A stretch of 64,000 nucleotides of DNA from a virus, in IMG/VR virus record IMGVR_UViG_3300029305_006221, positions 1 through 64,000 of that record; one strand, given 5' to 3'. Numbering within the stretch: position 1 is the stretch's first letter; every line of letters begins with the position of its first letter. Of the stretch, positions 5,239 to 43,247 are shown one piece after another. The notes under the pieces are model-generated. The model searched no databases. It was not told the DNA's origin and worked only from the letters and a program-made list of their open reading frames with translations. Both the position numbers and the translations under genes were made by a program.

Positions 5239-7406
5239 TTATTGAGCTGTATTTATTAAATCTCTAATTGCTGTTACAATCAAATCCAAAGCTTCTATCT
5301 GCTCACGAGAACATTGACTTACGCGCATTCCTTTGCCTAAATAGCTTTCGATTATCTGAGTAATACGAGGCTGCCAATAGGTTTTAAATGTTTCTTCATC
5401 ACTTTGAACTGAAAGATCTTGAATCATTGAATTAAACTGCATCATAAGTTCGTCGAAATCAAGTTCTTTAGATGCGGTATAAAGGTTTGCATCGTTTGTA
5501 GTAAAATGTTCTGAACCTTCTTCTGCAGCCTGCCTATCAATTGCATCACAGATAGCATTTACCAGATTTTGATAAGTGAAATCAATAACATCTGGGGTAT
5601 ATTTGAAACGGCTACCTGCTACATATCGAGGAGTTCCACGCATAAACAATTTAGTAGCGGTTCCTCCTTCAGGCAGATCTACTGTACGAGAATACCCAAT
5701 AATATCTGCCATCCTATTAACGATGTTACGAGGTTTGTTATCGAGAGTAGGGACGATCTGATTGTACTCGTTGCCATTCTGATCCTTAAAAGTCTTATCA
5801 ACTGAATGTGAGATAAGAACTAAACCGTAATTCATTTGAAGAATTGAGCGTAGGCAATCGTCAAATTCTTTAGCCGCCATCTTATAGCCCTTCCCGTAAG
5901 GGATGTCTCCTATTGCATCTACTCCAAAACCGCCATCGGCACGAGGTGCATTTGCGCAAATATATTTTTCACAATAGTCATAAGCTATATCAGCTGTATC
6001 AATAATAATAGTAGAAAAACGCTTTTGGACCTTAGGATCTTTTAATTGGCGAAGAACTTTTCGAAATTCACCCCAGCTATTAACTGGTTGTGCCATAGCT
6101 CCGGGGATTGCATTCCAACCTTTTTCAAAGCCAAGCAATAAGTGATTAGGAAATTTGGTGGCGATTGTAGTTTTACCCTTTTGTTTTTATCTATAGATTT
6201 TTTATTCTATACTCTGGAAATTTCTTTCATTTCTTAATACCGCCTTATATTAAGTCATCGAATGGTTTATTCCATTCCAGTTTAGCATAACTTCTCTTCT
6301 TAAGTCTATCAGAAGTCGTAGACTCGTGGTTTTATTATATTCTATTATTTTGTTCTTTCCACGCTAGATACTTTATATATTTTCTTTGTAAATAAAAACA
6401 TTTTTGTTGGTTCATAAGCTCGTAAAGAGTATTTAAAATCAGTTCAGCTTGTTGAGTTGAATACGTAATGGTATAATAATGTTGTTTCTTAGGCTCTTTA
6501 TAAACTTCACGAGGAATATGAAATACAGTATCAATTAACTGTGTAAAATCTTGAAGAATGTTAGGATCATAAGAACAAATTTCAATACGGCAATATTTAC
6601 CATCATTTTTAAAACATCCATCTCCATCAAAATAGCCTAAGAAAAAAGCTAATTGATATTGTTGTTCAAAAGCAGGGAGTCTCATTCCCTTGTAAGTTTT
6701 ATTGGGAACTATTGAGAATTGTGCTAATTTTTTCTTGTGATTTTCGCTACTCCAAGCCAAAGTTGATACTTGAAAACCTTGATTAGTTTCTTTATCGACG
6801 ATATTTCTTTCAATATCCAGTTCTTTTTGAATTTTTTCCAAAATTTCTCTATCTACTGAACTTAGCCCTAATTTAATAGAATTTCTATCTGGAGTAATAC
6901 TACCATCAGCTGCTAAGAATCCTAGCAACCAAGCCTTTTGTAAAGAATCTATATTATCAAAATAAGAGTGGTTTACTTTTTTCCCTCGTTCTTGATTAGT
7001 AATTCTATTTTGCTCTGCATGGGTTCTAGTTTTAATACCTTGCGCCTATAACATATTTTTTATTTTCTCTGGATAGGTTCCATATTTATTCGCAAGAAAA
7101 GTAAGCGATTTTCCTTCGCTATATAATTGTATCATTTCAGTGATGTCCATATACGGTACATGCTCCTTTCAAAATAATAGGTTCAAAAACTATGCGTTGC
7201 ACGTGGGGTGGCTATTACACCACCCCTTCCGTTCGGGTTATCTCTATAAGACCTTCCCGTTTTTTCTACGATGTTTGCCCTTTAATTTCTTAAAGGGAGA
7301 GCAGTAAAAGTTTACTCTTCGGTTCCCCATAAAAGAATACTGAATATCCTCTAAGGGTGCGACTAACCTAGTGGGGGGCTAGTTCAAGTAAATTAATATC
7401 TGCCAT
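5239..7406 (-). CDS. AAA_24/Sak4-like P-loop ATPase, split by a group I intron. Exon 1 is 7406..7314 (contains one in-frame TAG). Exon 2 is 6177..5239.
   Basis: Exon 1 reads MADINLLELAPH*VSRTLRGYSVFFYGEPKS and exon 2 reads GKTTIATKF.... Joining them restores a perfect Walker A (GEPKSGKTT). IIIDTADIAY and LVLISHS motifs lie downstream. Confidence 0.6.
6178..7313 (-). mobile_element. group I intron (about 1136 nt) inside the Walker-A codons of the AAA_24 ATPase gene; carries a LAGLIDADG homing endonuclease ORF
   Basis: Exon 1 ends in U (..AAGAGU) and the intron ends in G before GGUAAAACU. The exons join in frame. The region is structured and GC-richer than its surroundings. Confidence 0.55.
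6335..7150 (-). CDS. LAGLIDADG homing endonuclease with N-terminal HTH; one in-frame TAG at 7046-7048
   Basis: Two LAGLIDADG motifs (LGFLAADGSI and FLGYFDGDGCF). An N-terminal HTH (MDITEMIQLYSEGKSLTFLANKYG) continues in frame through a TAG. Confidence 0.65.
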
Positions 7407-9687: not shown

Positions 9688-9945
9688 TCATCCTCCATAT
9701 TTTCTTCTTTTATTTCTTTTTTAAGTTTCTTTAAATAACGAATTGCAACATCAATAGAGTCAAAATAACCTTCATGTTCAAATTCGCCACTCTCCTCCCA
9801 TTCAAGAGAGATTTCAATTCTTGTTACTTTCATTGTTTATCCTCACTAATATTTCAGCGACAAAGCTAAAACACTCATTCCATGACCAAAATTCTTTTTC
9901 TTCAATATCACCAATTTCATCTGTCCATTCTAGTTTAATATACAT

Positions 9946-11139
9946 TTAGTTATTCCCACGAGTTTTATTCAGTCCAAAATCATATGTTTGATATAGGTCA
10001 ATATAAAACTTCTCCTTTTCATTTAATTCATTAATACTACATTTCTCTAATATCTCAAAAGTGAAGTTGTCAATACCCTTTTCTCTTGTAAAAGCATAGA
10101 GTTGACTTGTTACAGGGGTATCGATACCCAAACTACATTTAACATGCGTTACCCAACGCTCTTTAATATCTTTAGCCTGACCGATATAGGATATACCAGA
10201 GTCAATGTGAGTTATTTTATATATTCCACTTGCGCCCACCGCACCTACGCGCGCCGCAAGGTCATTGACTTTATCTCTATAGAACGTAGACCATATAAGC
10301 ATGCGTAGAGGTCTTGGTTCGCGCAAGTTATATTCGATACTTTGAAGATATGCCACGTCACGCTTATCTGCTTCATTAAGTTGAAGAGTATAGAATGTTG
10401 CTTGGTTTTTAATCTCTTCTTCGCGCAGTTGAGCTTCCATTGCGGCGGCCCTAGTTGCACGAATTTTTTCTAGTTCTTTACGGATTGAGTCTAGATCGGC
10501 GCGCATTGCCGCCTCTTCTTCTTGCAATTCTTTAGACATTGACTGTTGCTTATCATAAAATAACTATACAAGAGCATCAATATCTTGTCTGCGCTCTTCA
10601 ATTAATCCTTTTTCTCTTGCATCAAGTTCTTGGAGTCTATCAAAGTATAATTGATCAAGAGTATCTATCTCCATATCAAACTCTTGTTCTTTCTATTTGT
10701 ATTCATAATCAAGAGTATCACAGTATTGCTCAAACGATGCGCGGGCTGCAGCTTTTAGGTCGCCTAACATTGTCTCTACAGAGCTGCTTAAAGCGGTGAT
10801 TTGCGCCTCAACTCCTGCTTTTTCAATTTGTTTACTTTGAATTTCATCTATTAATAATAACTTCTATTGAGTTAGTTGATTTAATTTGTCGTAAGAGTTT
10901 TTTGTTTTTTTGCAGTTCTCTTCATACTTTTGAGAAATTTCATTGTTAGATTTTATCAATAAGTCATTTTGAGCTTCTAAACTTTTGCGAGTTGCATGTA
11001 ATGACTAATTAAGTTCTTCCAGCTTCTAATTCTCCTCTGCCGTATAGTGATTAGCTTTTACGGACGTGGTTTTAGTCCATATACCATAAGCAAGACCTCC
11101 CGCTCCAAGAAGAATTGATATTACGCATATTATTATCAT
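9946..11139 (-). CDS. membrane-anchored coiled-coil protein with C-terminal GIY-YIG nuclease domain; five in-frame TAG codons
   Basis: N-terminal TM helix (MIIICVISILLGAGGLAYGIW), then a long heptad-rich region, then GIYKITHIDSGISYIGQAKDIKERWVTH. One frame is open through 5 TAGs and no other stops. ATGA overlap with the upstream gene. Confidence 0.6.
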
Positions 11140-14828: not shown

Positions 14829-17165
14829 TTATAGTTTTATTACTGATTTAATAATGCTATTTTTAATCATTATATTACCTTGCGCCGTGCGCGCTAAAAG
14901 CGGAATTTCAGTGGCTGATATACAGATACTGTTTGGTGAACCTACTATGAGAAGGTTATCTTCATCACTGATAAGAGCTGCGCCGGACAGGTCTCCGCTT
15001 CCTATCTTTAGACCTTTACCACCCCTGCCCTGAACAGGGAATTCTTCAATCGGGGTCTTGCGCCCCATGCCATTTGCGCTAAATGTTGCAAGAGTGTCAG
15101 TCTTGTGTTTAATAGGCAATCCAGTCAAAACTTCATCACCATCATTTAACTTAATGCTCTTTACACCAGAAGTTACGCGCCCAATAGGAGAGATATCTTT
15201 CGTTTCAAAGCGAATACTCATTCCCTGCTTTGTAATGATGATAAAATCTTCTTCATTAGCAAAGGTAACAGTGGCAAGCGAGTCACCTTCCTTAAACTTA
15301 ATTGCGGCAATACCTGTTGTGCGTTTAGTTTGAAGGTATTCTTCTAACTTAGTCTTCTTAAAGAGTCCCTGCTTTGTAATAAAGATTACATATTCTGCTT
15401 GGCTCTTGCGATATAGAGATGTCATAGCTACGACTTTTTCATCTGCTTCAAGATTTATCAATGCGCCGATACGTCCACCCTTAGAAGCATTGGTTCCAGT
15501 AGGAACTTTATCTACCAAGAGACGATACATCTTACCCTTATCCGTAAAGAACATCAAGGTATCAACGGTGTTAGTAGAAATCATATCAAGGATTGCGTCA
15601 TCTGTTGTCTTTACCCCTTTGCCATTACGTCTCTGCAATTTAAAGCTACTTGAAGGCACTCTCTTAATGTCACCATTTTGCGTAGCTATTACAACACAAT
15701 CTTCAGGCACTACAGTTTCAAGTTCCTTTTCTGCTTTAGGAAGCTCAATCTGTTCAAGACTGGTTCTACGCGCATCGCCATATTTCTTGACAAATGTAGT
15801 AAGGCGCTCGCGCAATACCTCACGCTGCTTAGTTTCATTAAGGAAGAGAGTGTTTAATTCCTCAACTTCTTTGCGCAATTCTTCTGCCTCTTGATTCAAC
15901 TCAACCTTTTCAAGTCCAGCGAGCTTACCAAGCTTCATATCTACGATAGCTTTTGCCTGTGCTTCGGAGAACTTATAGGTGGCGATTAACGCATCCTTGG
16001 CGGCCGTCGCACTTGCAGATTTCTTAATGAGCGCAATAATGTTATCGATATCTTCCAATGCACGAAGAAGTCCTTCAACGATATGAAGTCTATCCTGTGC
16101 CTTTTCCAAATCAAACTGCGCTTCGTTTTGAATACAAAGCAGATTATGGTTTACATAAATCTCGCAACACTGTTTCAAATTAAGCTCTGTAGGAGTCTTA
16201 TCCACAAGCGCGACTTGGTTATACGAGAATGAGGACTGGAGATCGGTCTTTGCGAACAATTGCTTTACGATAGCGTCAGGGTTTGCGCCTTTCTCACATT
16301 CGATAACGATTCTCATACCCTTCTTATTACTCTCGTCTCTTAAATTCTCAATACCTTCAAGTTCTTTTGCATCACAGAGCTTTCCAATTTCTGCAAGAAG
16401 AGCTTCTGTTTGAACTCCATAAGGTATTTCATAAAAGACGATATTTTGCTTTTCAATATTATATCTACCACGAACCTTTACTGTTCCGTGACCTGTTTTC
16501 ATTATTGCAGGGATGTCATTTTTGTTTATTACAACACCACCTGTTGGGAAGTCAGGTCCAGGCAACATAGGCTCAGCGCCATCCATATATGCGAAAATTG
16601 CATCTGCGACTTCGGTTAAGTTGTGTGGCGCCCAGTTACAAGCAATAGCCCATCCAATACCCATATTCGGATTGCAAAGTAAGTTAGGAAACAATGCAGG
16701 AAGAGTCATAGGCTCTTCTGTTGTTTCATCATAATTGCGCATAAAACGCACATTGCGCTTCTTTAATCCTTGCAATAGTCCGTCTTCTGTAAACTTAGCA
16801 AGGCGCGCCTCAGTATAACGATAATGCGCCGGGCCGTCGCCTCCCACATTACCCATGTTTCCGTGGAAATCAATCAGCGGATATCTCATTTCCCAAGGCT
16901 GTGCAAGGCGAACAAGCGCGCCGTAGATGGAGCTATCTCCATGAGGATGGAACCTAGCCATTACATCACCGACGATATTTGCACACTTAACATGAGGCTT
17001 ATTGGAGCTTCTACCCGAATCATATGCGCCATAGATAATTCTTCTTGCAACGGGTTTCAAACCGCTTGTAGCATCTGGTATCGCGCGGTCTTCATTCACG
17101 GCGGCCGCGTACTCAATACAGTTATTTGATAACTCTTGTGTTAATTCAACTTTATTATACTCCAT
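14829..17165 (-). CDS. type II topoisomerase A subunit (GyrA/ParC-like)
   Basis: AIPDATSGLKPVARRIIYG and the catalytic Tyr region. GGAGG RBS. 778 aa from MEYNKV. Terminator hairpin at 14803-14823. Confidence 0.8.
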   Translation of the reverse strand: MEYNKVELTQELSNNCIEYAAAVNEDRAIPDATSGLKPVARRIIYGAYDSGRSSNKPHVKCANIVGDVMARFHPHGDSSIYGALVRLAQPWEMRYPLIDFHGNMGNVGGDGPAHYRYTEARLAKFTEDGLLQGLKKRNVRFMRNYDETTEEPMTLPALFPNLLCNPNMGIGWAIACNWAPHNLTEVADAIFAYMDGAEPMLPGPDFPTGGVVINKNDIPAIMKTGHGTVKVRGRYNIEKQNIVFYEIPYGVQTEALLAEIGKLCDAKELEGIENLRDESNKKGMRIVIECEKGANPDAIVKQLFAKTDLQSSFSYNQVALVDKTPTELNLKQCCEIYVNHNLLCIQNEAQFDLEKAQDRLHIVEGLLRALEDIDNIIALIKKSASATAAKDALIATYKFSEAQAKAIVDMKLGKLAGLEKVELNQEAEELRKEVEELNTLFLNETKQREVLRERLTTFVKKYGDARRTSLEQIELPKAEKELETVVPEDCVVIATQNGDIKRVPSSSFKLQRRNGKGVKTTDDAILDMISTNTVDTLMFFTDKGKMYRLLVDKVPTGTNASKGGRIGALINLEADEKVVAMTSLYRKSQAEYVIFITKQGLFKKTKLEEYLQTKRTTGIAAIKFKEGDSLATVTFANEEDFIIITKQGMSIRFETKDISPIGRVTSGVKSIKLNDGDEVLTGLPIKHKTDTLATFSANGMGRKTPIEEFPVQGRGGKGLKIGSGDLSGAALISDEDNLLIVGSPNSICISATEIPLLARTAQGNIMIKNSIIKSVIKL

Positions 17166-20159
17166 ACTTAGCCTCCTTACTGTGATCCTGAATAAATTTC
17201 TTTCTTGCTGCAACTCCTACGCCCATCAGCTGATCAAACAAAACATCTGCTTTCTTTGCTTCTTCAACCGTAACCTGATTCAACACTCTTAAGCCTGGGT
17301 CTACAAGAATTTCAGTCTCGTCCTCTGACATCTCGCCTAATCCTTTGAATCTATTGACCTGATACTTTTTTCCTCTATTTTTCTCTTGAAACTCAGCCAA
17401 CTCTTTATCGTCTCTTAAATACAGATAAGTATCTTTACCCATCGTAATCTTATAGAGCGGCGCCACAAGTGCATATACATATCCATTTTCAATTAAAGCG
17501 GGGCAAAAATTCCATATAAATGTGTAAAACAAGTTTCTAATGTGTGCCATTAAACATTAGAATTGAGTATTTCTCCTGACTATCTTTTACTCTCTGTTTG
17601 AGAGGAAACCATTTCAGCATTTAATGGACTTCGTTTCCTAAAATCCAACTGCGTACCAATAGCAGCCTTACTTCCTTGCCCAGAAGGCTTAAGGAATAGT
17701 CGATACAGGTCAAATATTAACCCATTTTTTTTCTTTTTTCTTGTAAATAGGAAGGTTATCATAATAACGACCCCATAAAATCATTTGGAAAGTTTGATAA
17801 GCGACTCTGTTTTTATAATCTTCATAAATTTGCTTCGCAGTTTCATTAATATAACGAGTGCGAATAGCAATAATTTCTTCATCTGTAAAATGAGCATCTT
17901 TACCTTTTGAGCCACGGCTATTTTCATAGATGTAATAATCTTTATTCTCTTTGGTAAAAACCTCGGGCATAATGTGTGCCCAAGTTCTACCCTGCCAAAC
18001 AGATTGAAAGTTACTAAAAGTAGTTTTATCTTTAAATAATTCATATACATCTTTTTGGCGAAGATGCTTAGCGTATGCTTTACGAATTATCATAACATCT
18101 TCTTCGTTTAATTTTGCATTACCATTTAAAGAACCAACAGATGCTTGTTCTCCTCCGGGATTACAATTGTATCCATTTGGATAACTTTTATAATAAGCAA
18201 TCCAATACTGTTCTCTTTCATTTAATTGCTCTAATGAACATTCTTCTAATATCTCAAAATCAAAAGCTTCAGTTCCATATAAACCAATAGCTACGTCTAC
18301 TGGGATATCGGTTCTATCTCCTCTTTTATGCTCAGAGAAGCGCCTTTTTATATCATTAGTTTGTCCAATATAACACTTTCCATTAGATTTTTTAGTAATT
18401 TTATAAATTCCTATCATAATATATCTCCTTTTTGTATTTGGAGATAAGAGTTAATAAATGTTCCCACGGGATTACCAATACTCAGGCTTCCCCGTTAGCA
18501 TTGAAAAATTCTTATCTCTGTTCTATTATTATATGAAAATCGTACTAATCACATATTCTAATTTTAACCAAAAATTTTAAATTTTTCAATACCCTGCTGG
18601 TTAGCAGTAAAGTTTTTCATCGGCGCAACTTAAACTCGTTCACCGTCTGCATCCGCATCGGCAGCTATAATAATCTTCCCATAGCGCAGTGAGTCTTTAT
18701 CATACGTTAGCTTCATTGTTTTCGGATCGGTTTTAAGACCAAAGGCTTCAATCATAGTCATAATTTCTGCATTCTTTTGAATTTTATCTAAGGCTGCTTT
18801 TTGCGTATTTAATATCTTTCCGCGCACGGGCAGCACTGCTTGAAACTCATTATCGCGGGCAGCTTTCATATTGCCGGAGGCGCTATCGCCTTCCGTCACG
18901 TAAATTTCACAGTTAGCGCGAACCTTTGAATAACAGTCTGCTAATTTTGAATCAAACTTAAGCGCCTTTTCCTTTTTCTTTTTATCGCCTCGAGCCGCGT
19001 CGCGCGCCTTTTTAGCAGCTTCTCTTGCTTTCCTTGCAGATAAGGCTTTTTCAATAATTGTTTTAAAGGCATTTTTATAAGAAGATGTTAAATCTCCAAG
19101 AGCTTGAGTTGTTAGCTTCTGCGCATAAGTTCTACCTTCAGAAGAACTAAGCTCCTCTTTATTTTGTCCTTTAAAAACAGGATCAATCATCTTAAAGTTT
19201 AGAATTAAAATCATACCTTCTTCATAGTCTGAACCAGTAAGATTTTCTTCTTTTTCTTTAATTAACTTATTTTCTCTTGCAAAATTATTTAATCCCATTG
19301 TCCAAGCTGTTTTAAAACCTGTCAAATGAGTTCCTTTTTCTTGGGGAATATTGTTTGTATATAGTTTAATAACAGAAGAATAAGATTTACTATATCCAAT
19401 AGCAACCTCGAGTTGAAACTTACCTTCTTCGCTATTGAAGTAGAAAGGATCAGCTATAAACTCTCCTTTTGGATTTAAATAATCCATATAATCTGCAAGT
19501 CCGCGCTCAGAATAGAAATCTTCTTTTGTATCTAAAACGGTATAAATAAAATGTAGCCCTTTGCATAAAAAGCTAAATTCTCGAATCATATCTCGAATAC
19601 CTTTAATATCAAACTCTACTGTTTCAAGGACTTCTGGGTCAGGATAGAATTCAACAGAAGTTCCAGTGATCGATTTGTCAATTTTATTCTCTTTATGAGA
19701 AATAAATTGACCTCTTGAAAATTCTACGATTTCTTCAATGCCTTCGCGGCGGGTTTTTACAATCATAGATTTAGATAAAGCATTTACAGCCTTACCTCCA
19801 GTTCCGTGTTCTCCGCCAGAAGTATTATATCCAGATTCTCCAGTAGCATTATCAAATTTACCGCCAGTATTTGCAATACCAAAACAAGCTTGAAGCACAC
19901 TACAACCACTTGGATGTTTACCATGCGGAATGCCGCGCCCATTATCTTCTATGCGAATACCATTGTTTGGTAAAATAGTTACTTTTATTTGATTACCAGC
20001 TCCATTTAAATATTCATCAATACTATTAGAAATTATCTCTTTTACACAATGAAGTAATCCTTTTGCATCCTTACTTCCTATATACATACCGGGATACTTT
20101 CGGATATGCTCAAAGTAATCAAGAGATTTAATATTATCTGCTTGATAATTTTGTGTCAT
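17155..20159 (-). CDS. type II topoisomerase B subunit (GyrB-like), split by a group I intron. Exon 1 is 20159..18642. Exon 2 is 17547..17155.
   Basis: Exon 1 carries the GHKL ATPase (YIGS, NGRGIP) and TOPRIM EGDSA. It ends ...IIIAADADADG. Exon 2 starts AHIRNLFYTF...KGLGEM. The join recreates the conserved DxDxDG-HIR block. Confidence 0.75.
17548..18641 (-). mobile_element. group I intron (about 1094 nt) in the gyrB-like gene, carrying a GIY-YIG homing endonuclease
   Basis: U before the 5' splice site (GGU|GAA). G before exon 2 (..UUUAAUG|GCACAC). Structured GC-richer 3' region at 17580-17700. Confidence 0.6.
17710..18417 (-). CDS. GIY-YIG homing endonuclease (I-TevI-like), intron-encoded
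   Basis: MIGIYKITKKSNGKCYIGQTNDIKRRFSEHKRG. 235 aa. Confidence 0.75.
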   Translation of the reverse strand: MIGIYKITKKSNGKCYIGQTNDIKRRFSEHKRGDRTDIPVDVAIGLYGTEAFDFEILEECSLEQLNEREQYWIAYYKSYPNGYNCNPGGEQASVGSLNGNAKLNEEDVMIIRKAYAKHLRQKDVYELFKDKTTFSNFQSVWQGRTWAHIMPEVFTKENKDYYIYENSRGSKGKDAHFTDEEIIAIRTRYINETAKQIYEDYKNRVAYQTFQMILWGRYYDNLPIYKKKEKKWVNI

Positions 20160-20287: not shown

Positions 20288-20908
20288 TTAATCATCGCCT
20301 TGTTTATAACTTGTATCACAGAATAAGAATGGGAATACATCTGCTTTAGTTAAAAAGCTAATGCCAAAGAAAGAAAGCGCAATGGTTTCTATTAACCAAA
20401 TCTAAATACGGAAATAAGGTAATAACAAAATGCCAAATGAAGCAATCATTCCAATTCCGCAAATTCTATAGATAATATTACGCGCCTTTTTCTTTTTAGT
20501 CATTTCTCCGCTTGATTTTGTAAACAAAAATAAAGAGTTGTAAGAAAGAAGACCGAAGAATACAATAGCTGATACATTATGAATGGTTGCACTAATGTTT
20601 ACAGGAATCTAAAAGGTTCCTACTAGCGCCGGCGCTAATGCATCCCAACAGGGACAGAAACAGATAAGCAAGCCACATATTCCTGCAAGTGTCAGAATAA
20701 TATCATCCAATTTAGTATATCCTCGGTAGGAAATCAAAAGAAAAGATGCTGAGCATAAGATTCCCATAAAAGGGGTTATACATTGAGCGATATAATAAGT
20801 GGCGGAAATAGATGAGGGTATGCCGCCGAAGAGTAAAGCAACAATCCAAGGAAGTGCCATACTTAATATACCAATTAAAATGCGCAAGCGCGCGGTGTTT
20901 AATTTCAT
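20288..20908 (-). CDS. polytopic membrane protein with two in-frame TAG codons (20609-20611, 20402-20404)
   Basis: The hydrophobic ORF continues in frame ...VGTF*IPVNISATIH...PYFRI*IWLIETIALSFFG... down to a TAA at 20288. Confidence 0.55.
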
Positions 20909-20981: not shown

Positions 20982-21455
20982 TTAATGAAGATATTGTTTA
21001 TATCCTTCTAACATTACTCTAAATTTAAAATATAATTGAGGAAGAGTATCAGCTTCGAGCGCCGGATCATTATAGGGAAAAACAGGTTCAATCATTGGAA
21101 GATCATTTTCGGCTAAAAAATTTCTAAAAGCCAAATCAATTTCACGAAGACGCTGGATTTCTGTCCGAGCCAACTCAGCATTATACTTTAAATTATAAAA
21201 TCCTGTATCTATTGTCATAAAGTATTTTTTAGAAACTCTGTTATAATAGATATAAGCGTCATCCCATGAGTAGAAAGAAGGAGTTATATTTTTATCTATA
21301 TTGTATCCCCAAATAAAAAGATTGTCAAGCATATTGAATTCGTCATCTTTCCAATCAGGATAAAGGCGCGAACATCTTTCTTTTTCATATCTATAGTCTT
21401 TGTTTAATTCTTCATATAGCTTTTGCAGATAAGCATCAAATTTTTGTTTATTCAT
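20982..21455 (-). CDS. hypothetical protein
   Basis: Start at MNKQKF, just downstream of the suppressor-tRNA terminator. Confidence 0.45.
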   Translation of the reverse strand: MNKQKFDAYLQKLYEELNKDYRYEKERCSRLYPDWKDDEFNMLDNLFIWGYNIDKNITPSFYSWDDAYIYYNRVSKKYFMTIDTGFYNLKYNAELARTEIQRLREIDLAFRNFLAENDLPMIEPVFPYNDPALEADTLPQLYFKFRVMLEGYKQYLH

Positions 21456-21488
21456 ATTGAAACTCCTTATTAATAAATAAAATAAAAA

Positions 21489-21510
21489 CTCCTTTGAAAA
21501 TTCAAAGGAG
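21489..21510 (-). terminator. terminator immediately after the suppressor tRNA
   Basis: CUCCUUUGAAUUUUCAAAGGAG hairpin plus a U-run. Confidence 0.55.
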
Positions 21511-21519
21511 TTTAAATAA

Positions 21520-21595
21520 TGGCGGCGGAGGTGAGATTCGAACTCACGCATATGCACTTTTAGAGAGTGCCGCCTTCCCGCTTGGCTACTCCGCA
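21520..21595 (-). tRNA. amber suppressor tRNA, anticodon CUA, tRNA-Gln-like D-arm
   Basis: Cloverleaf folds. Anticodon loop is CU-CUA-AA. D-arm AGCCAAGCGGGAAGGC matches the tRNA-Gln D-arm. T-arm is GUGAG/UUCGAAU/CUCAC. CCA is encoded. Own promoter (21625-21653) and terminator (21489-21510). Confidence 0.8.
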
Positions 21596-21624
21596 ATATT
21601 GATTTCTTAACTTATTACATATAT

Positions 21625-21653
21625 ATTATAATTAAATTTTTTTAAGAAATCAA
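21625..21653 (-). promoter_or_regulatory. dedicated promoter of the suppressor tRNA (TTGATT-N17-TATAAT)
   Basis: -10 lies about 30 nt upstream of the tRNA 5' end. Confidence 0.55.
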
Positions 21654-21677
21654 TTAAATTAATCAATAGGGAACTGG

Positions 21678-22535
21678 TTATGAATTATAATATTCCCAAT
21701 GATATCCCGCAGCTGTTTGCTGCAAACCCATAACGCAATGCTAAATGTCTCCTCCATATTTTCGTTCCGCATCTCCAATGCTTAAAAATATTTCACCCGT
21801 TTCTAAACAAATTATAGATCGAGCTCGGCCTGTTTTTTTACGACGACTCTCAATTATTTCGATTGTAGTTATATTATCATCTGCTTTCACCCAATGTTTA
21901 CCATTAATGGATAGCGCTTGACCTAAAACACAACGATTGATACCTTTTCTATCGCAATGTGTTTTTCGTGCAGCTTCACTAATAGTAGGATAAATTTGAC
22001 CTGTCTCTAAACACTTAACAGCATAGCCGTATGCATTATCATGTTTTTGCTTTTCTTCAGGCGATAAATTTTTTCGCCAATTCTATAATGCTTGTACGCA
22101 CTATTCTTTAAGCTCAGGATACTATTGCAACCTTTCTTTTGTTTTTATAGATTGTTTAATATGTTCTTCTTCTCGCTAATATCTTATTATTTGTCCTTGT
22201 GACATATTTTGACGAGCTTCATTTGATAAAGCATCTCTACATCCATCTTTAATTCTTTTATTATAGCCCTTTTCTGGAAGATAAGTTTCGTATTGTAAAA
22301 TATATTTTGTTTCTAGTTCTAAAGCTTCTTTTTCAGACAGATTTTCATGTAAAATAGAATGGATAAATCCTTCTTGCCATCCGTCTTCTTGTATATCTCG
22401 CCAAAAACGCTAATTTTTGTTATACCCGTTACCATTACGCCATCTAGCCGTGGCAGAAGCAGAAGTGATACCAAAGTATTTCTAACCAGTCTTTTTTCTT
22501 TCGTGCATATAAACAAGATATTTTTTTTGATCCAT
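21678..22535 (-). CDS. free-standing GIY-YIG-family homing endonuclease with tandem C-terminal DNA-binding modules; six in-frame TAG codons
   Basis: MDQKKYLVYMHERKKTG*KYFGITS... Two repeats of a CLETGxIF..S..EA.RK....I..C..G...A.GYHW module. All interruptions are TAG. Confidence 0.55.
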
Positions 22536-22536: not shown

Positions 22537-23034
22537 TTAGGTTTCTCCTTTGTATTTAATATTATACTCTTCACAAAGCTTGTTAAATTGTTTTATATTA
22601 CCTGTAGCTAAGCAATCTGCTAATTCATTACCTAATATATTTGCATGTCCTGGTACTTGCAGAATTTGCGTGGCAAAACTAAGTTGTTGATATAATTTAT
22701 AAGCTTCTTGTATATATATTAAATTTTGAATAGGTTTTTTATCTTTTTTTGTCCAATTATTCTTAGCCCAGGTATCGGCCCATTGAGTAATGCTATTAAC
22801 AACATAGGCGCTATCAGAGTAAATAACGAATTGATGTTGTGGATTAGACTCTGCATAATTGAGGGCGCAAATCATTGCTTTAAGTTCCATACGGTTATTG
22901 GTTACATTATCTTCAGAATCGTGTTCTAAGAAAAGAATTTCAGAATCGTCTCCGCTCATCACGATCATTCCCCAACCACCTGGACCAGGGTTTCCGCGAC
23001 TAGAACCATCTGTATATGCATAGTATTTAGCCAT
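22537..23034 (-). CDS. rnhA: ribonuclease HI
   Basis: YTDGSSRGNPGPGGWG, MELKAMICAL, VPGHANILGNELADCLA. 165 aa. Confidence 0.85.
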   Translation of the reverse strand: MAKYYAYTDGSSRGNPGPGGWGMIVMSGDDSEILFLEHDSEDNVTNNRMELKAMICALNYAESNPQHQFVIYSDSAYVVNSITQWADTWAKNNWTKKDKKPIQNLIYIQEAYKLYQQLSFATQILQVPGHANILGNELADCLATGNIKQFNKLCEEYNIKYKGET

Positions 23035-25889: not shown

Positions 25890-26105
25890 TTATTCTTCTG
25901 TTACTTCAACTTCTTGTGCTTCTTCTACATCGGGAGCAGTTGCTTCAGCTTTAACCAGCCCCTCTAAGCATTTGAAACTAAAATTTTTATGTTTAAATGC
26001 GGCGAACTTAGGCCTATTAACAATACGAACCACTACGCCTTCGCGCACATGGGTCTTGCCTATCGGATCGGGACCATCATAAAACTGCTCTGCCTTAAAA
26101 CCCAT
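25890..26105 (-). CDS. RNA ligase C-terminal segment (motifs IV/V) in the -1 frame relative to 26060..27295
   Basis: EGVVVRIVN (motif IV) and FKHKNFSFK (motif V) with an acidic tail. Overlaps the upstream ORF by 46 nt. Confidence 0.45.
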   Translation of the reverse strand: MGFKAEQFYDGPDPIGKTHVREGVVVRIVNRPKFAAFKHKNFSFKCLEGLVKAEATAPDVEEAQEVEVTEE

Positions 26106-27295
26106 TCACCCGCAGAAATAGTAGGATCGTCTGCTGACGCGCAGTGGTCAGGAATAATACCTTTCCACATTACAGGAACGGTTTTTACTCCCATCTGTTC
26201 ACAGCGATAACGCATGAAGTCAGGAGTATACTCAACTACATCACCATCCTCGTTAGTCATAGTCATACGGTAGATATAGATATCTGACTGAGGGACTTCC
26301 ACAGAAATAGAAAAAACTCCATTATCATCATTGCCATACATTGTCTTTAAACCATCAGGAGCGCATCCATAAGAAAAACGAGTAGTTTCACCATACTGTT
26401 TAATAAAATCTTTATCATTTAGCTTTTTATTATTTGCATCTCCCATAATAGGCTTTCCATCGGTTGTAAAACCAACTACCTCGTAGTAAATAGTCTCGCC
26501 CTTCCAAAGTTTTCCTTCAAAAGTCTTTGAATGTTTTTCTCTAAACTCATTAGAGCCATAAAACCCACCTTCATAATCTTCAAGAACTACGCGGCGGGTG
26601 CCAGAAACACCGCCCCAGTCATATATAGGAGTACCTTCTTTTCGAGTGATCTTATCCCAAAGGCTACGCTTGTATCCTTTTAGAGTAGGCAGATAACCAG
26701 TTCTCTGACTAGTGCCATGTAGCTTAAGCGTGATCTCAATCTCGTCACCAGGCTTAAAAGCGCCAAGGTTATAAGCTAACTGCTCAGTGTCAGCATGCTC
26801 CTTGAACAAAGGCGCGGTAGAGACCTTCTTCTTACGAGTTCTGTTTCCATCTGATACATAACCGCGACGAGTATTAGAACGAGGAATATACTTGCAACAA
26901 ATCTCGTGTCCATTAACAAGACCTTCGATTATATCTCCCTCTTTAAGATGCGCGGCGGCTGCCTCATCTTCGAAGCAATAGTCGAGCGCAGATAAAGGAA
27001 GGAAAATACCATCTGATTTCTCTCCGCGCAAACGAATAGCGGTTATATTGCGTTTGTCAGGATCCATGTAGCCACCTATATTCACTCCATTTTCGTCTTT
27101 CTTACGAAGTAGATTATTATGTTTAGCAAATTCTACTGATACCTGACCATCGGTAGGTAGATAGATACCAAGCTGTCCCTCTTTATAATCAAGAGAGACG
27201 CATATAGTATTTCCAAAACAGTCTGCAAGAAGCAGTCTATCTGCATTGGGATGAGGGCGCACATTTTTAAGTGTAGTTATATAAGCCTTATACAT
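26060..27295 (-). CDS. RNA ligase (Rnl2-like), N-terminal part: tRNA-binding (Trbp111/Myf-like) domain plus adenylyltransferase motif I. The ORF ends at a TAG and continues in the -1 frame.
   Basis: N-terminal VRPHPNADRLLLADCFGNTICVS. Motif I KLHGTS (KxHG). 411 aa. Confidence 0.55.
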   Translation of the reverse strand: MYKAYITTLKNVRPHPNADRLLLADCFGNTICVSLDYKEGQLGIYLPTDGQVSVEFAKHNNLLRKKDENGVNIGGYMDPDKRNITAIRLRGEKSDGIFLPLSALDYCFEDEAAAAHLKEGDIIEGLVNGHEICCKYIPRSNTRRGYVSDGNRTRKKKVSTAPLFKEHADTEQLAYNLGAFKPGDEIEITLKLHGTSQRTGYLPTLKGYKRSLWDKITRKEGTPIYDWGGVSGTRRVVLEDYEGGFYGSNEFREKHSKTFEGKLWKGETIYYEVVGFTTDGKPIMGDANNKKLNDKDFIKQYGETTRFSYGCAPDGLKTMYGNDDNGVFSISVEVPQSDIYIYRMTMTNEDGDVVEYTPDFMRYRCEQMGVKTVPVMWKGIIPDHCASADDPTISAGEWVLRQSSFMMVPIR

Positions 27296-27548: not shown

Positions 27549-28445
27549 TTAAGCCTCCAAAAATTCTCTAAGCGCATTGGCGCGCATTGGATTACGAAGT
27601 TTCTTAAGTGCTTTTTCTTCAATTTGTCTTATACGCTCTTTAGAGAGTCCATAAAAATTACCTACTTCTTCAAGAGTCTGAGGATGTCCTGTTTCGAAGC
27701 CATACCTACGGCGCAAAACGTCGGCTTCGCGCGCCTCAAGAGTCTCTAATACAGTATCAATCTTTTTGCTAACCTCTTGTCTATAAAGGTTTTCAATAGG
27801 ATGTTCTATTGAGTCATCTGCAATTAAATCTCCAATAGTGCCATCATCTTCATCATTAAATGTTTGATCAATAGAAACAGGGTCTTTAATTATAGATTGA
27901 AGCTCTCGCACTTTATTCTCTTCTATTTCCATTCTGCGCGAGATTTCACTTATAGTAGGTTCACGGTGAAGTTCTTGAAAAAGTTCATTAGTGACTCGAC
28001 TAAGTTTACTAAGCTGCTCTATAACATGAGCAGGAACTCGAACAAAACGAGATTGTTCAACAACTACTTTTGAGATTGCTTGTCTTATCCACCAAGTAGC
28101 ATAGGTTGAAAATCTATAGCCAAGACTATAATCCCACTTATCAACAGCTGTCATAAGTCCGATATTTCCCTCTTGAATAAGATCAAGTAGCGGAATCTTA
28201 GAGCGATGGGTATATTTCTTTGCGATGCTTACAACTAGGCGCAAATTAGCGTTTATAAGTGCTTCACGGGCGCTCTTATCTCCTTCTTTTATTAAGGCTC
28301 CAAGATGTTGCTCTTCTTCTGCTGTTAAAAGAGGGGTTTTACTAATTGATTTTAAATAGGCGCGAGTCGCTTCCATTACAAAACCAACATTTTCTTCTCC
28401 ATAAATTTCTGTTTCATTTTCTAAAGTCATTACGTTATCATTCAT
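27549..28445 (-). CDS. sigma-70 family RNA polymerase sigma factor
   Basis: Regions 2.1-2.4 ([40 protein letters not shown]) and 4.2 ([20 protein letters not shown]). 298 aa. Confidence 0.85.
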
Positions 28446-28493
28446 ATTATCTCTCTCTTTTCTATTTTATTTTTATTTTTTTTTAAGTATAAT

Positions 28494-39940: not shown

Positions 39941-40461
39941 ATATAAGTGGCAGTAAGTTGCCAGCCGCGTATTGCTTTTCCTTATGGTTCCATTTGCTCT
40001 ACCAAGAGTTGGATTACTCCAACGAAAATAGAAACTTTAAGTGGATCGGCGTTGCCTCTATTCCACTTTTCCGCGTTGTCGACTTACGCTTAACCGTTTT
40101 ACTTTTTATCTGCGTCCAGACCTGCTTATTGCTTACAGGTGTTTCTATATAGATGCACGCATCTTTGGGCAATCCAAATTATGGCGGCGTGCCAGCCTCT
40201 GGCGGAGAGCTGAGGTGTCGATCCCCATACGGGTACTAGCCGTACCAACCGTTTTCAAGACGGTGTTGCGAGCCGTCGCAATTAACCCTCCATATAAAGC
40301 AGAGGTTATCGTACTCTGCGCAGTCCCATATGGCGCCTTGTAAAGACTGCAACGATTCGACTATTCGCTATCGACAAACGCTACTTCTGATTGTGGATGG
40401 TCCACCAATACGCTTCCAACTTAGGGAGTTTCACCTTTTATGTCGCCGCATTAACGACAGC

Positions 40462-40553
40462 TGGCAGCGAGGGTGAGACTTGAACTCACACACCGATTAC
40501 TCGATTACTGGTAGGTTAGCAACCTACTGCCTTACCAATTAGGCTTACCCCAC
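40462..40553 (-). tRNA. class-II tRNA-like gene (Ser GCU-like anticodon arm), atypical. The acceptor pairing is unresolved and may indicate a pseudogene.
   Basis: Anticodon arm GUAGG-UUGCUAA-CCUAC. The variable arm contains a tandem AGUAAUCG repeat. T-arm GUGAG/UUCAAGU/CUCAC. 3' ..GCCA. Confidence 0.35.
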
Positions 40554-40873
40554 TATAAGTGATAAGCTGCGCCAACATACGCCCTTATCTTGTCACTGTG
40601 TTTTACAACCCGTCAGTGAGCCAGTTGTTGGGTTTTTCCCTCTGCGTAATGTTGGGCGCTTTTGGGGAGTTGTCCTTCTCCTGTTAAGGCATTCGCTCTA
40701 AGCTGCTCTTACTTAGTGGGGCCGCTTTATTCCCATACCTTATGTATTGTGTGTTCCACTTGCGTTTTCTCTTCTTAATCGGTTTACACACAACCTTCCA
40801 CTTGAAGCGCCACTAATTTATATACCGAATCTGGCTTTCATCGGTGAGTATGATATCGATCCCTTTAAGGGAC

Positions 40874-40961
40874 TGGTGGGGGAGATGAGATTCGAACTCA
40901 CAGCGTTTCTAATGTACGCGATTTTAAGTCGCGGGCGTCTCGCCAATTCCGCCACTCCCCC
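40874..40961 (-). tRNA. tRNA-Leu (UAA), class II
   Basis: Acceptor GGGGGAG/CUCCCCC-A-CCA. Anticodon arm CGCGA-CUUAAAA-UCGCG. Long variable arm. Confidence 0.7.
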
Positions 40962-40990
40962 GTGTCGCCTCATAGTGAGGCTTTTGCGCC

Positions 40991-41335
40991 TTAACAGACG
41001 CGAACAAAATGATACATCATTGGATGATGAGTATCTGCAAAAGACATATCTCCAAAAGCATTTTCAAATTCTTTATCAATAGCATCTGTTTCATATTCAA
41101 ACCAACAGATAGCGTCTATTGAGTCAAGATCAATTTCTCGACCAAGAGTGACTCCAAAATAGTAATCACCATAGTTGCCATAGGCATTATCTGTGATAAA
41201 TGAGTACTTGTCAGTTCCATCGTACTTATCGCAGAACTCTTCTATGAACTTACCTGTTTCTTCCTCAAGGCGCTTAATTTCACTTTTAGATATTTTATAT
41301 CCATAAATTAAAACTGACTCATAATCAACACTCAT
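40991..41335 (-). CDS. hypothetical acidic protein inside the tRNA island
   Basis: Start MSVDYESV. Promoter at about 41365-41400. Confidence 0.4.
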   Translation of the reverse strand: MSVDYESVLIYGYKISKSEIKRLEEETGKFIEEFCDKYDGTDKYSFITDNAYGNYGDYYFGVTLGREIDLDSIDAICWFEYETDAIDKEFENAFGDMSFADTHHPMMYHFVRVC

Positions 41336-41431
41336 TTTTTCTTTTTTCCTCTCTTTCATCTTACATATATATTATATCATAAATTTTTGTAAAAATCAAA
41401 GAAGTTTCATAGTAATTGATTAAAATTTCAT

Positions 41432-41520
41432 TGGTGGGCGATGAGGGAATCAAACCCACTCGAGTCACAATGACGCTAGATTTACAGTCTAACCCGCCTA
41501 TCTTAACGGTTTAATCGCCC
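41432..41520 (-). tRNA. tRNA-Tyr (GUA), class II
   Basis: Acceptor GGGCGAU/AUCGCCC-A-CCA. Anticodon loop CU-GUA-AA. Variable arm stem GUCA/UGAC. Confidence 0.65.
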
Positions 41521-41587
41521 ATATAAAATAACTTTAGGTCAGTCAACCACACATCTATTTTAACCTCGACATTTGTTCTCTGAGGAC

Positions 41588-41677
41588 TGGAGCAAGATGC
41601 TGGAATCGAACCAGCATTAATGGAGTATATAACCCGTCCCTATAACAGGCGCGTATAACCTATTCCGCCAATCTTGC
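41588..41677 (-). tRNA. tRNA-Leu (UAG)-like, class II, A33 in anticodon loop
   Basis: Acceptor GCAAGAU/AUCUUGC-U-CCA. T-arm GCUGG/UUCGAUU/CCAGC. Anticodon arm CCUGU-UAUAGGG-ACGGG (one G-U pair). 17-nt variable region. Confidence 0.45.
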
Positions 41678-42001
41678 ATATAAAATGAGGCGCCAGTGCA
41701 TGCTACAGCCAAGCCGGCAGTTACCCATCGCCGCCTCTCTTGGATTTATGGGTGCGGATATCGGTACTGCCCCGATCACCCTGAGCTTATGAGGCTCTGG
41801 TGAGCACTATGCCCATCCGCGATATAAAGTGAGAGTTTACAGTACCCTCGGAACCTTATCCCAACTTCCCATTAAGTACAGCCAAGTTGGCACTGTACGC
41901 CTGATTTTTATTTATACTCCCACTCGGACAGGAGTGGCGCGACCTTAAGAGATTAACTCTTCCCCATCGGCGCTCTTATTAGTTGATGGGCGGCATTAAT
42001 A

Positions 42002-42076
42002 TGGTGAAGCTTGAAGGAATTGAACCTTCGCCTAAGCGCTGAGAACGCCTCGTTGTAACCACTTAACTAAAGCTCC
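42002..42076 (-). tRNA. tRNA-Glu (CUC)
   Basis: Anticodon loop UU-CUC-AG. Acceptor GGAGCUU/AAGCUUC-A-CCA. Confidence 0.6.
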
Positions 42077-42126
42077 ATATGAGGGACAGTAATTTCGATT
42101 ACGCGCTGTACCTCTGACCGCGTTTC

Positions 42127-42203
42127 TGGTGATGCCGACAGGATTCGAACCTGCGAATATAGGGATGAAAACCCTAGGAGTTAAACCACTTCTCAACGGC
42201 ACC
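42127..42203 (-). tRNA. tRNA-Glu (UUC)
   Basis: Anticodon arm UAGGG-UUUUCAU-CCCUA. Acceptor GGUGCCG/CGGCAUC-A-CCA. Confidence 0.65.
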
Positions 42204-42416
42204 GCATGCCTTGATGCATTTAACGCTCATCAAGTAGCGTGGTGTTTTCTCTCGGATTACTCCCTAACCGCCCTTTGATTATGCCACCTCGCAACTCACA
42301 AACGGGTAATTTGTTGCGCCATATCTTCATTAAATACCCTACACCGTCACTCCATCAACGGCGGGTTTATCTAAACGATTTTACTAATATAGGATTATCG
42401 TGAACCTATACATAAG

Positions 42417-42490
42417 AGGGACTTAACGGACTCGAACCGTTGCCACATAGCTTATCCATTCTACTGCTCTACCATCTGAGCTAAGGTCCC
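42417..42490 (-). tRNA. tRNA-like gene, atypical: the anticodon stem cannot be paired and there is no CCA. May be a pseudogene.
   Basis: Good acceptor, D-arm (GCUC/GAGC) and T-arm (AACGG/UUCGAGU/CCGUU), but the central UGGAUAA loop region lacks a stem. Confidence 0.3.
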
Positions 42491-42905
42491 ATATTCCAAG
42501 GGGTTCGTATCGCGGTTATCCCCACCGCGTGTGTACACAAGCATTTTCAGACTCCTAACGGTTGTCTACTGATGCTTACAGGTATTTCCCGCCTTTATTC
42601 ACCCACTTTTGCAATTCGCTTGCAGGTTGGAGAACAAAAGTAAATGCAGCTCCTATGCGGAGGGTTCTCTCTCTTTCACACCCACAACGTCAGCTCCGTC
42701 ACGAGGAAGCCACGCTCATTTTTTCATAGGAGTTGAGTATTCTCCCAATGTCACGCAGACCTCATGCAGTCCTTGCGACTATACCAAGCGTAGTTGTCTT
42801 TCAGACTTTCACGGGACTACGCAACTCCGTTCACTTTTTGCTTCTTTGCTTTTCTATTGTATATATATTATATCATATTTTTTTAATAAAATCAATAGAG
42901 AATGA

Positions 42906-43124
42906 TTAAACGATAATAAAATCGCTTATATTTCGATAAATATCATTCTCTGCTTCGCACCAGAGTTCATCAAACTCCATTGCATAAAGTGCGCCAAGCA
43001 ATGATTTTGCATTAACCTTAAGCCCCGCTCCATCGGTGATATGAACTGCGCCTTCCATCTTAGTTGTGATGTTAACAAACTCTTGAACATCACGCATTGT
43101 ATCAAGTCTTATTTTTGCTTTCAT
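42906..43124 (-). CDS. small HPr-like (phosphocarrier-fold) protein (tentative)
   Basis: VNAKSLLGALYAMEF resembles the HPr VNLKSIMGVMSLG segment. 72 aa from MKAKIRLD. Confidence 0.3.
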   Translation of the reverse strand: MKAKIRLDTMRDVQEFVNITTKMEGAVHITDGAGLKVNAKSLLGALYAMEFDELWCEAENDIYRNISDFIIV

Positions 43125-43247
43125 TTTTTTTTCTTTTCTTCCTCTCTCATTATTACATATATATATTATATCATATTTTTTTATAAAAATCAATAATTGC
43201 GCAAGAAATTACTTTTAAATGCCTTAAGATATGGATTAAAATGTTTT

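Follow-up and report, generated by a model that had tools for sequence, protein, structure and literature searches.

The stretch analysed here comprises positions 1 to 64,000 of the IMG/VR virus record IMGVR_UViG_3300029305_006221 (64,000 nucleotides, hereafter the window), and carries on its minus strand a transfer RNA (tRNA) gene with the anticodon CUA, tRNA(CUA), in a slot between the genes for RNase H and GyrB. The gene spans 21520..21595 (-) and is 76 nucleotides (nt) long including an encoded CCA; the calls of ARAGORN and Rfam, the cloverleaf and covariation among relatives point to a Gln-type amber suppressor. Immediately upstream lies a sigma-70-type promoter, TTGATT-N17-TATAAT (21625..21653, -), found in a consensus scan and conserved in relatives, followed by a discriminator or initial transcribed region and 5' leader, ATATATGTAATAAGTTAAGAAATCAATAT (21596..21624, -), that is also conserved in the relatives' alignment; transcription is predicted to start near 21618. 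Scanning and folding place an intrinsic-terminator-like 12-bp hairpin with a T-run downstream of the tRNA (21476..21513, -; 21513..21486 in the scan itself). Two further genes complete a cassette of about 1.5 kb between RNase H and GyrB, namely orf157 (20982..21454, -), which encodes a conserved protein directly 3' of the suppressor, and a gene for a membrane protein of 206 amino acids (20288..20908, -).

The window is the replication arm of an SPbeta-like phage of about 136 kb with Firmicutes-type hosts. All of its long open reading frames (ORFs) are on the minus strand, and its genes include DnaB, an AAA_24 ATPase, an NAD-dependent ligase, GyrA, a split GyrB, RNase H and a sigma-70-family factor, along with about 20 tRNAs besides the suppressor (ARAGORN). 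The coding strand switches about 5.5 kb past the high-coordinate end of the window, where the divergent arm opens with a TerL-like ORF, and relatives carry an SPbeta-type structural module (YonG, YonD, YonB, YomW, YomV and YomU). The DNA examined is the window together with about 9 kb past its end, out of the 136 kb genome, and the late arm was read from a 135,988-bp metagenomic contig (JGI 3300031555) that carries the window's proteins.

ARAGORN calls a tRNA with anticodon CTA on the minus strand, and the Rfam covariance model RF00005 scores it at 53.2 bits over model positions 1-71, well above its gathering threshold of 29 (whole-window E = 1.3e-8). The cloverleaf has U33, C34-U35-A36 and A37 in the anticodon loop, a 5-bp anticodon stem, G18G19, the T-loop GTTCGAATC and a 5-nt variable loop, and its sole irregularity is a U1.C72 mismatch atop the acceptor stem. 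A sequence-only reading of this DNA had described a canonically folded 76-nt CUA tRNA with U33 and A37, and both programs and the cloverleaf bear this out. The label that ARAGORN prints, 'tRNA-Pyl', could be taken to favour the insertion of pyrrolysine at TAG; this label, however, derives solely from the anticodon. A tRNA-Pyl is marked by a variable loop of 3 nt, an anticodon stem of 6 bp and a small D-loop that lacks G18G19. The window tRNA instead has the G18G19, 5-bp stem and 5-nt loop given above and a standard T-loop, and no pyl genes are present among the annotated proteins.

The assignment is further supported by conservation of the locus. A CUA tRNA is found in the same slot in every relative that has an orf157 homologue (one copy is cut off by a contig end), and the order RNase H, tRNA, orf157 is kept in viral and metagenomic relatives even where orf157 is only 42-67% identical. 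Across eight orthologues, double compensatory changes occur at 12 of the 17 stem pairs while the CUCUAA loop is invariant. Because the tRNA is kept in the slot of every orf157-bearing relative and its stems co-vary, it is not a chance match.

Comparison with the relatives also clarifies the gene that adjoins the suppressor upstream. The sequence-only reading placed the tRNA beside a TAG-rich homing endonuclease gene, and the adjoining ORF (21678..22535, -) indeed matches GIY-YIG and NUMOD1 in Pfam and contains seven in-frame TAGs. The adjacency itself is incidental, since relatives lack the endonuclease and the DNA bears the signature of a lineage-specific insertion. In relatives, RNase H ends in NWFPID* right against the -35 hexamer. 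In the window, the RNase H gene (22537..23034, -; Pfam RNase_H), which forms the upstream boundary of the slot, ends in KYKGET*, its 3' end having been replaced by the insertion as judged from the C-terminal comparison. An orphaned C-terminal remnant of RNase H, NQFPID*, remains after the endonuclease gene (21659..21679, -), which shows that the endonuclease inserted into the RNase H 3' end. The same endonuclease gene with the same TAGs is present at locus L011, and the order RNase H, endonuclease, tRNA is found again in contigs from six samples. Its position next to a mobile GIY-YIG gene could suggest that the tRNA is a decaying, functionless passenger brought in by the endonuclease. The comparative data refute this idea and leave it almost no chance: the tRNA occurs in relatives that lack the endonuclease, the promoter-tRNA unit was already in place when the endonuclease inserted upstream of it, and the stems co-vary around an invariant anticodon loop.

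The orthologues vary in length and in their leaders. Several CUA tRNAs are 88-99 nt long, at L004 (10580-10678), L149 (5867-5956), L317 (5480-5576), L366 (4758-4854) and in phage Phass-1 (L148, 12445-12532), and the three long copies that were inspected (L004, L149 and Phass-1) have a class II-like long extra arm in the variable region; the L004 copy is misread by ARAGORN. In three other relatives a 40-90-nt insert separates the promoter leader from the tRNA 5' end (L003 at ~9730-9865, L151 at ~5780-5873 and L155 at ~5820-5859), and in L003 and L151 it is flanked by the inverted repeat GTAATGAG ... CTCATTAC. These inserts may be processing or stability elements.

The body of the tRNA points to glutamine. 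tRNA(CUA) contains the Gln-type D-arm AGCCAAGCGGNAAGGC. In a census that searched one genome per bacterial species, 113 occurrences of the D-arm motif TAGCCAAGCGGNAAGGC lie in tRNA-Gln and 8 in tRNA-Cys among the 120 genome stretches listed, which come from diverse bacteria, and the near-identity to the bacterial tRNA-Gln D-arm claimed from the sequence alone thus holds. At the acceptor end, a non-G base 1 together with G73 is found only in Gln, Asn, Trp and a few Ser tRNAs of the bacterial reference set, so that the two censuses combined leave Gln as the sole isotype satisfying both. A tRNA-Cys body is ruled out, as tRNA-Cys has U73 and G1-C72. BLAST searches with the tRNA in collections of phage and E. 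coli sequences were uninformative as to isotype, returning generic T-arm matches, mostly to tRNA-Ser, or none. The window itself contains no tRNA-Gln.

The top of the acceptor stem is unusual. A Watson-Crick 1:72 pair, typical of elongator tRNAs, is absent from the window copy (U1.C72), and the orthologues have U-A, U.C, U.U or A.A at this position and never G-C; in 626 bacterial reference tRNAs, a 1:72 mismatch is found essentially only in initiator Met (C.A, 11 cases). Glutaminyl-tRNA synthetase (GlnRS) opens the 1:72 pair, so an unpaired 1:72 should help charging by this enzyme. The identity set of bacterial tRNA-Gln comprises G73, U1-A72, G2-C71, G3-C70, G10, U34/U35/G36, A37 and U38 (PMC9976931), of which tRNA(CUA) carries G73, G2-C71, G10, U35 and A37; G73 is present in the window copy and in every orthologue. 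U1 is kept without the U1-A72 pair, position 72 being C. In place of the G36 and U38 of the set, the window copy has A36, which is obligatory for reading UAG, and A38. The sequence-only reading had named G73, U35 and the 2-71 and 3-70 pairs as the GlnRS elements to look for, and all are in place except 3-70, which is C-G rather than G-C in the window copy and in L155 and G-C in six other orthologues. Because G73, G2-C71, G10, U35, A37 and the already unpaired 1:72 fit the identity set of GlnRS, the sequence suggests that a host enzyme most likely charges tRNA(CUA), with GlnRS favoured.

The genes of the phage show what such a tRNA would decode. TerL of the source phage contains seven in-frame TAGs, a YonG-like ORF six and a third late ORF two, and these late ORFs are shattered by standard-code gene calling. 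Among minus-strand ORFs of at least 80 amino acids, the stop codon is TAA in 50, TGA in 17 and TAG in three, and the three TAG stops belong to a nested spurious ORF, a frameshifted gene and a read-through membrane protein. Recoded late arms have 8-11 in-frame TAGs per 1000 codons. The window arm has about 2, a figure that includes a few spurious ORFs, and the late arms of standard-code relatives have about 1, with TAG found only at ORF ends or upstream of starts.

Within the replication arm, genes with endonuclease domains hold 13 of the roughly 16 TAGs. Seven are in the GIY-YIG homing endonuclease gene beside the suppressor, where the GIY-YIG domain and the NUMOD1 motifs continue through all of them. 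Five are in a gene identified from Pfam and its translation as encoding a protein with a transmembrane segment, a coiled coil and a GIY-YIG domain (9946..11139, -); relatives that are 87-89% identical also have TAG at three of these sites, and the other sites align with Q or K. The last, seen in the translation, is in a LAGLIDADG homing endonuclease gene (6335..7150, -). Mobile endonucleases here seem to be written in the late-gene code.

The identity of the residue inserted at TAG emerges from comparison of the late genes. In a tally of 120 TerL homologues, Gln occupies five of the seven TAG columns. Such a tally is potentially circular, because some pipelines translate TAG as Q (as in the gene call of L011), and codons were hence checked in the DNA. 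In L139 and L140, which use the standard code and whose TerL ends in a TAG stop, five of the seven source TAG sites are CAA or CAG, and the remaining two are CAT and AAA. L138, a second recoded genome, has TAGs at different positions, and there both other genomes have CAA or CAG. More broadly, 19 of 43 TAG sites in late genes align with Gln against a background of 3.9%, and across 43 TerL genes and 37 TAG columns Gln makes up 44% of the pooled non-TAG residues, its background being 3.4%. Where a TAG column is otherwise invariant, the residue is almost always Gln and in one case Glu. This Glu column, position 331 of the TerL alignment, is TAG in two genomes and Glu in all 41 other TerL genes, and is the only invariant non-Gln column with TAG. 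Because CAA and CAG were read at the codon level in genomes without in-frame TAG, the assignment of glutamine is not circular. On these alignments TAG is glutamine in the source phage, which corresponds to genetic code 15, and TAG is essentially never a real stop.

Insertion of another residue at TAG, whether pyrrolysine, serine, lysine, tryptophan or tyrosine, is very unlikely given these data. Beyond the ARAGORN label, this possibility can draw on the BLAST matches of the T-arm and acceptor 3' half, which are mostly to phage tRNA-Ser, also with G73; on the class II-like long variable arm of some orthologues and of one Phass-1 copy; and on Lys being the second commonest residue at TAG-aligned sites. 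The window copy, however, lacks a long arm, which makes the synthetases SerRS, LeuRS and TyrRS unlikely, and Gln is enriched more than 10-fold at TAG sites where no other residue exceeds about 13%. The columns invariant elsewhere and the combination of D-arm and acceptor end likewise fit only Gln, the single Glu column apart.

The flanking signals of the suppressor are well conserved. The two hexamers of the promoter and their N17 spacing do not vary across relatives with flanking proteins of 42-67% identity, and L003 and L151 have a perfect TTGACA. The terminator hairpin has a folding energy of -15.1 kcal/mol (z = -5.6 against shuffles), and a hairpin followed by a T-run stands after every copy in the relatives although the stem sequence varies. 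The promoter and hairpin-T terminator proposed in the sequence-only reading are thus present and retained, at the level of sequence. The same reading took them to define a stand-alone, separately controlled unit, which does not survive a view of the whole window. When up to 3 mismatches are allowed, the motif TATAATATATATGTAAT is found at 24 sites where 1.05 would be expected, and 23 of these sites are on the coding (minus) strand. One promoter family, TTGATT-N17-TATAAT followed by ATATATGTAA, has about 15 copies between 14.8 and 49.8 kb, before replication genes, before the suppressor and inside the tRNA island. A second, TTGACA-N17-TATAAT, has about 15 perfect copies at 56-64 kb, before small ORFs beside the strand switch. 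These two spatially separate families resemble two temporal classes, and a sigma-70-family factor is among the phage's own genes (27549-28466, -).

Downstream, the roughly 30 nt between the hairpin and the orf157 ATG contain no promoter in the window or in any relative, so orf157 must be expressed by read-through. Since the promoter is one of about 15 alike and orf157 has none of its own, the tRNA heads a conserved cassette that would be expressed partly by terminator read-through and is not separately controlled. An individually regulated late switch, in which a dedicated promoter and terminator would turn TAG decoding on at a specific moment, is therefore unlikely. It would accord with the conserved promoter and strong terminator that immediately flank the suppressor, and with the published model of Borges et al. 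(bioRxiv 10.1101/2021.08.26.457843), in which suppressor expression gates late and lysis genes. Against it, the promoter belongs to the class spread over replication genes and the tRNA island, and the island tRNAs are likewise scattered in small promoter-bearing units. Moreover, the -35 of some relatives is the TTGACA of the other class, leaving neither a class signature nor a unique operator-like element; the conserved upstream sequence TTGATTAA is only the RNase H stop region; and orf157 depends on read-through.

The distribution of the cassette links it to the code of the genome. The phage family is polymorphic in its code: among 80 TerL genes (IMG/VR loci L156-L235, in particular L177, L181 and L186; 60-97% identical to one another), 37 are TGA-recoded, 22 are TAG-recoded, 18 are standard, and three are mixed, with four TGAs and one TAG near the 3' end. 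TGA in the family's TerL sits at Trp positions. Loci anchored on GyrA in 53 viral contigs fall into two groups. The group with GyrA at least 71% identical has RNase H, tRNA(CUA), orf157, the 204-207-residue gene (where examined) and GyrB in this order. In the sister group, DUF5662 and RNase H are followed by about 100 nt and then by GyrB, with neither tRNA nor orf157, and TGA interrupts the TerL of this group at precisely the sites that are Trp in other members. The comparison of cassette with code uses genomes that have both loci on one contig, three TAG-recoded and two TGA-recoded, with no standard-code genome among them. The cassette is present in all three of the former (the source, 3300029705_000054 and 3300029305_004519) and absent from both of the latter (3300045988_162592 and 3300045988_142935). 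The slot was not recovered from standard-code genomes, orf157 scans having given few loci and RNase H being too generic as a probe. Among genomes typed at both loci, the cassette tracks TAG and not TGA recoding.

This distribution also bears on the idea that the tRNA serves mainly to sabotage the host or competing phages through read-through of host TAG stops, or as a spare against anticodon nucleases. The roughly 20 other phage tRNAs may have such a role, a suppressor would inevitably extend host proteins ending in TAG, and sensing or interference between co-infecting phages is discussed by Borges et al. Such a main role is nonetheless highly improbable. Essential genes need the suppressor (TerL with seven TAGs, the YonG-like gene with six), the presence of the cassette follows TAG rather than TGA recoding of TerL, and the host has no CUA-anticodon tRNA to replace; read-through of host genes could be a side effect, which would leave the pattern of conservation unaccounted for.

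Taken together, tRNA(CUA) is very probably a functional amber suppressor that inserts glutamine at UAG and serves as the decoding component of a code-15 lifestyle. Host RNA polymerase or the phage sigma factor would start transcription near 21618, and because the promoter class is common to replication and tRNA-island genes, the suppressor would be made before or with the middle genes. RNase P and 3' trimming would mature the precursor to its encoded CCA, a host enzyme, likeliest GlnRS, would charge it with Gln, and Gln-tRNA(CUA) would out-compete release factor 1 (RF1) at UAG. As the late genes are TAG-rich and the suppressor shares the promoter type of the replication genes, the TAG-interrupted late genes would be completed only once the suppressor has accumulated. 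The timed decoding of TAG-containing genes envisaged in the sequence-only reading is retained to this extent, the decoding of such genes and their later translation agreeing with the model of Borges et al.; the idea is not new, and the separate control attached to it falls away.

Several points weigh against this interpretation. The window copy deviates from the E. coli GlnRS identity set at three points, with C3-G70 for G3-C70, A38 for U38, and A36. Many Firmicutes, moreover, have no GlnRS. In a host of that kind, the indirect route through GluRS and GatCAB would be problematic, as B. subtilis-type GluRS depends on a modified U34 and the amidotransferase on the U1-A72 pair (PMC9976931), and tRNA(CUA) has neither. 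Roughly every second TAG site faces a residue that is not Gln (K, E, A and others), as variable columns would lead one to expect, though this is no proof. TerL alone calls for seven successive suppressions, which demands a high efficiency at each codon: at 50% per codon only about 0.8% of the chains would reach full length. The window encodes no release factor or synthetase; more suppressor copies or helper genes may lie beyond the 64 kb and the further 9 kb or so examined.

The two protein genes of the cassette are less readily interpreted. orf157 is present with the CUA tRNA in all relatives, is absent together with it in the sister group and, among the relatives compared, occurs only beside a CUA tRNA. 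Its confident AlphaFold2 model (predicted local distance difference test score 92) combines a three-stranded sheet with a long helix at the N-terminus and two further helices. Foldseek finds no significant match for it in PDB or BFVD, a profile search finds none in PDB sequences, and it matches no Pfam family. Release factors recur among the Foldseek matches to PDB, but at noise level (E ~1, probability at most 0.04, root-mean-square deviation ~24 A), and the PDB profile search recovers no release factor; these matches were rejected as evidence. The third cassette gene encodes the 206-residue membrane protein; it contains two in-frame TAGs, and its product is hydrophobic through both. It has no Pfam match, and by eye there is at best a weak variant promoter upstream. 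Several relatives have a gene for 204-207 amino acids at the matching position after orf157, matched by position and size.

These observations allow a further, doubtful possibility, namely that promoter, tRNA(CUA), leaky terminator, orf157 and membrane protein form a portable 'code-switch cassette' of about 1.5 kb, whose gain between RNase H and GyrB would set the TAG-recoded members of the family apart from the TGA-recoded ones, and in which orf157 is a dedicated suppression helper. The protein would then antagonise RF1 or promote the charging or use of the 1:72-unpaired tRNA, and the conserved 1:72 mismatch, also found in the distant Phass-1, would be part of the same adaptation. The only hint of a functional link between orf157 and the suppressor is their strict co-occurrence, for which joint inheritance in a single inserted block is an equally good explanation. 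If true, this proposal would answer how code-15 phages reach near-complete read-through in a standard-code host.

Other features of the window merit a brief description. The gyrB region at 17155-20159 is split by a free-standing GIY-YIG endonuclease gene (17710-18417, -) into an N-terminal part with a truncated Toprim domain (18630-20159, -) and a GyrB C-terminal ORF of 131 amino acids (17155-17550); GyrB is intact (632-635 amino acids) in several relatives, and the split form is common to others. A PHA02142/RNA-ligase-like gene (25890-27295, -) consists of a 411-residue ORF and an overlapping 71-residue ORF, with an apparent -1 frameshift near 26100 in the sequence GAATGGGTTTTAAGG, and corresponds in relatives to one protein of 474-478 amino acids; programmed slippage, mutation or assembly error may account for it. 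An 841-residue protein (30265-32790, -) matches the major vault protein shoulder domain of Pfam (E = 3.5e-25) and a vault repeat, which is unusual for a phage replication arm. Among the early small ORFs, a 110-residue protein with a PemK/MazF-type toxin domain (62748-63080, -), present on at least 24 contigs of the collection, is directly followed by a gene for 64 amino acids. The main tRNA island, placed 12 kb from the suppressor in the sequence-only reading, spans 36151-44349 (-) and so begins about 14.5 kb away. It is loose, its tRNAs lying 100-700 nt apart amid small ORFs and promoters, and contains oversized members, Thr(UGU) of 85 nt and Lys(UUU) of 87 nt with enlarged variable regions and an 'Ile(UAU)' of 90 nt, as well as a tRNA at 42416-42490 that is called with a 4-base anticodon.

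Recoding of TAG to Gln with phage-encoded Sup-CTA tRNAs is established for crAss-like phages, Lak phages and several Firmicutes-infecting clades (Borges et al.; PMC9523058), and metaproteomic evidence is reported for crAss-like code-15 phages in the abstract of PMC9523058. The crAss and Lak examples have Bacteroidetes hosts and gene content unrelated to the source phage. The NCBI taxonomy contains a 'Caudoviricetes code 15 clade'. Further sources on phage-encoded TAG-to-Gln suppressors of code-15 phages are Peters 2022 and, reportedly, Ivanova 2014. The locus described here shares the features of such suppressors, with a CUA anticodon on a phage genome, TAG-interrupted essential genes and TAG aligned with Gln codons. 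A cellular counterpart is the E. coli supE-type tRNA-Gln(CUA). tRNAfMet(CUA) and like CUA derivatives are also glutaminylated (Giege & Eriani 2023, PMC9976931), and a CUA tRNA with U35, G73, G2-C71, G10 and a weak or unpaired 1:72 is, as in the window, a GlnRS substrate reading UAG as Gln (PMC9976931). The window copy departs from the supE-type and tRNAfMet(CUA) suppressors in having C3-G70 and A38 instead of G3-C70 and U38. Furthermore, supE-type and laboratory suppressors are chromosomal mutants or constructs that give partial suppression in a standard-code cell, whereas the suppressor in the window is a conserved phage gene dedicated to this task, and essential genes rely on it.

Within the Firmicutes-infecting phages, Borges et al. 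describe an 'Agate' clade that mixes standard, TGA-recoded and TAG-recoded genomes, and the source family, likened to it by description only, also mixes codes. Like the source phage, the phages of Borges et al. keep early and replication genes compatible with the standard code and recode the structural and late ones; they also share a suppressor tRNA, the proposed use of host GlnRS and close standard-code relatives. A nearer comparison is Phass-1, of the proposed genus 'Phassvirus' (Babkin et al. 2023, PMC10607447; OQ749652.1), a gut phage of about 136 kb whose TAG-to-Gln recoding is concentrated in the genes for TerL and the virion. It has about 30 tRNAs, encodes no aminoacyl-tRNA synthetase and has a predicted Clostridia host. 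It belongs to the same broad assemblage of SPbeta, Geobacillus E3 and Enterococcus EF1-like phages as the source phage. Its 72-nt Sup-CTA shares the acceptor design of the window tRNA (U1.C72, G73 and a GGGGAG stem). In contrast, its TerL is 42% identical, there is no nucleotide match and it has no orf157 homologue; its suppressors are two tandem genes with a tRNA-Leu beside anaerobic ribonucleotide reductase genes, unlike the promoter-tRNA-terminator unit between RNase H and GyrB. The source phage is thus of a lineage distinct from Phass-1, with a differently organised suppressor locus.

Deposited phages give no nucleotide match to the 15 kb around the tRNA (megablast), and an exact 33-nt piece of the tRNA has no match in viral contigs. 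For the source TerL, an unannotated 12-kb fragment gives 70% identity, and Geobacillus virus E3, Enterococcus phages and Phass-1 give 42-45%, the best annotated match being 45%; the SPbeta-like gut phage family has 7,700 TerL homologues. In the searched passages of Borges et al. and PMC10607447, we find no mention of a promoter and terminator anatomy, a three-gene cassette or a 1:72 mismatch (the word 'promoter' occurs 0 times in both). The trick itself is already documented in gut phages; the locus is a well-characterised new example of it and no new phenomenon, from a lineage that the deposited-phage collection searched does not contain. What it adds locally is the promoter and terminator anatomy, the phage-wide promoter class, the cassette that tracks TAG recoding, the recurrent unpaired 1:72 and the endonuclease-borne TAGs of the replication arm.

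The established picture of code-15 phages is unchanged by these findings, and their importance is incremental. In practice, the late genes of this genome are broken up by standard-code gene calling. The locus offers handles on how a phage suppressor is charged, through its unpaired 1:72, and on how it beats RF1, through the seven TAGs of TerL, with orf157 as a candidate companion protein. For the SPbeta-like family, standard, TAG-to-Gln and TGA-to-Trp coding are all found among genomes whose TerL proteins are at least 60% identical.

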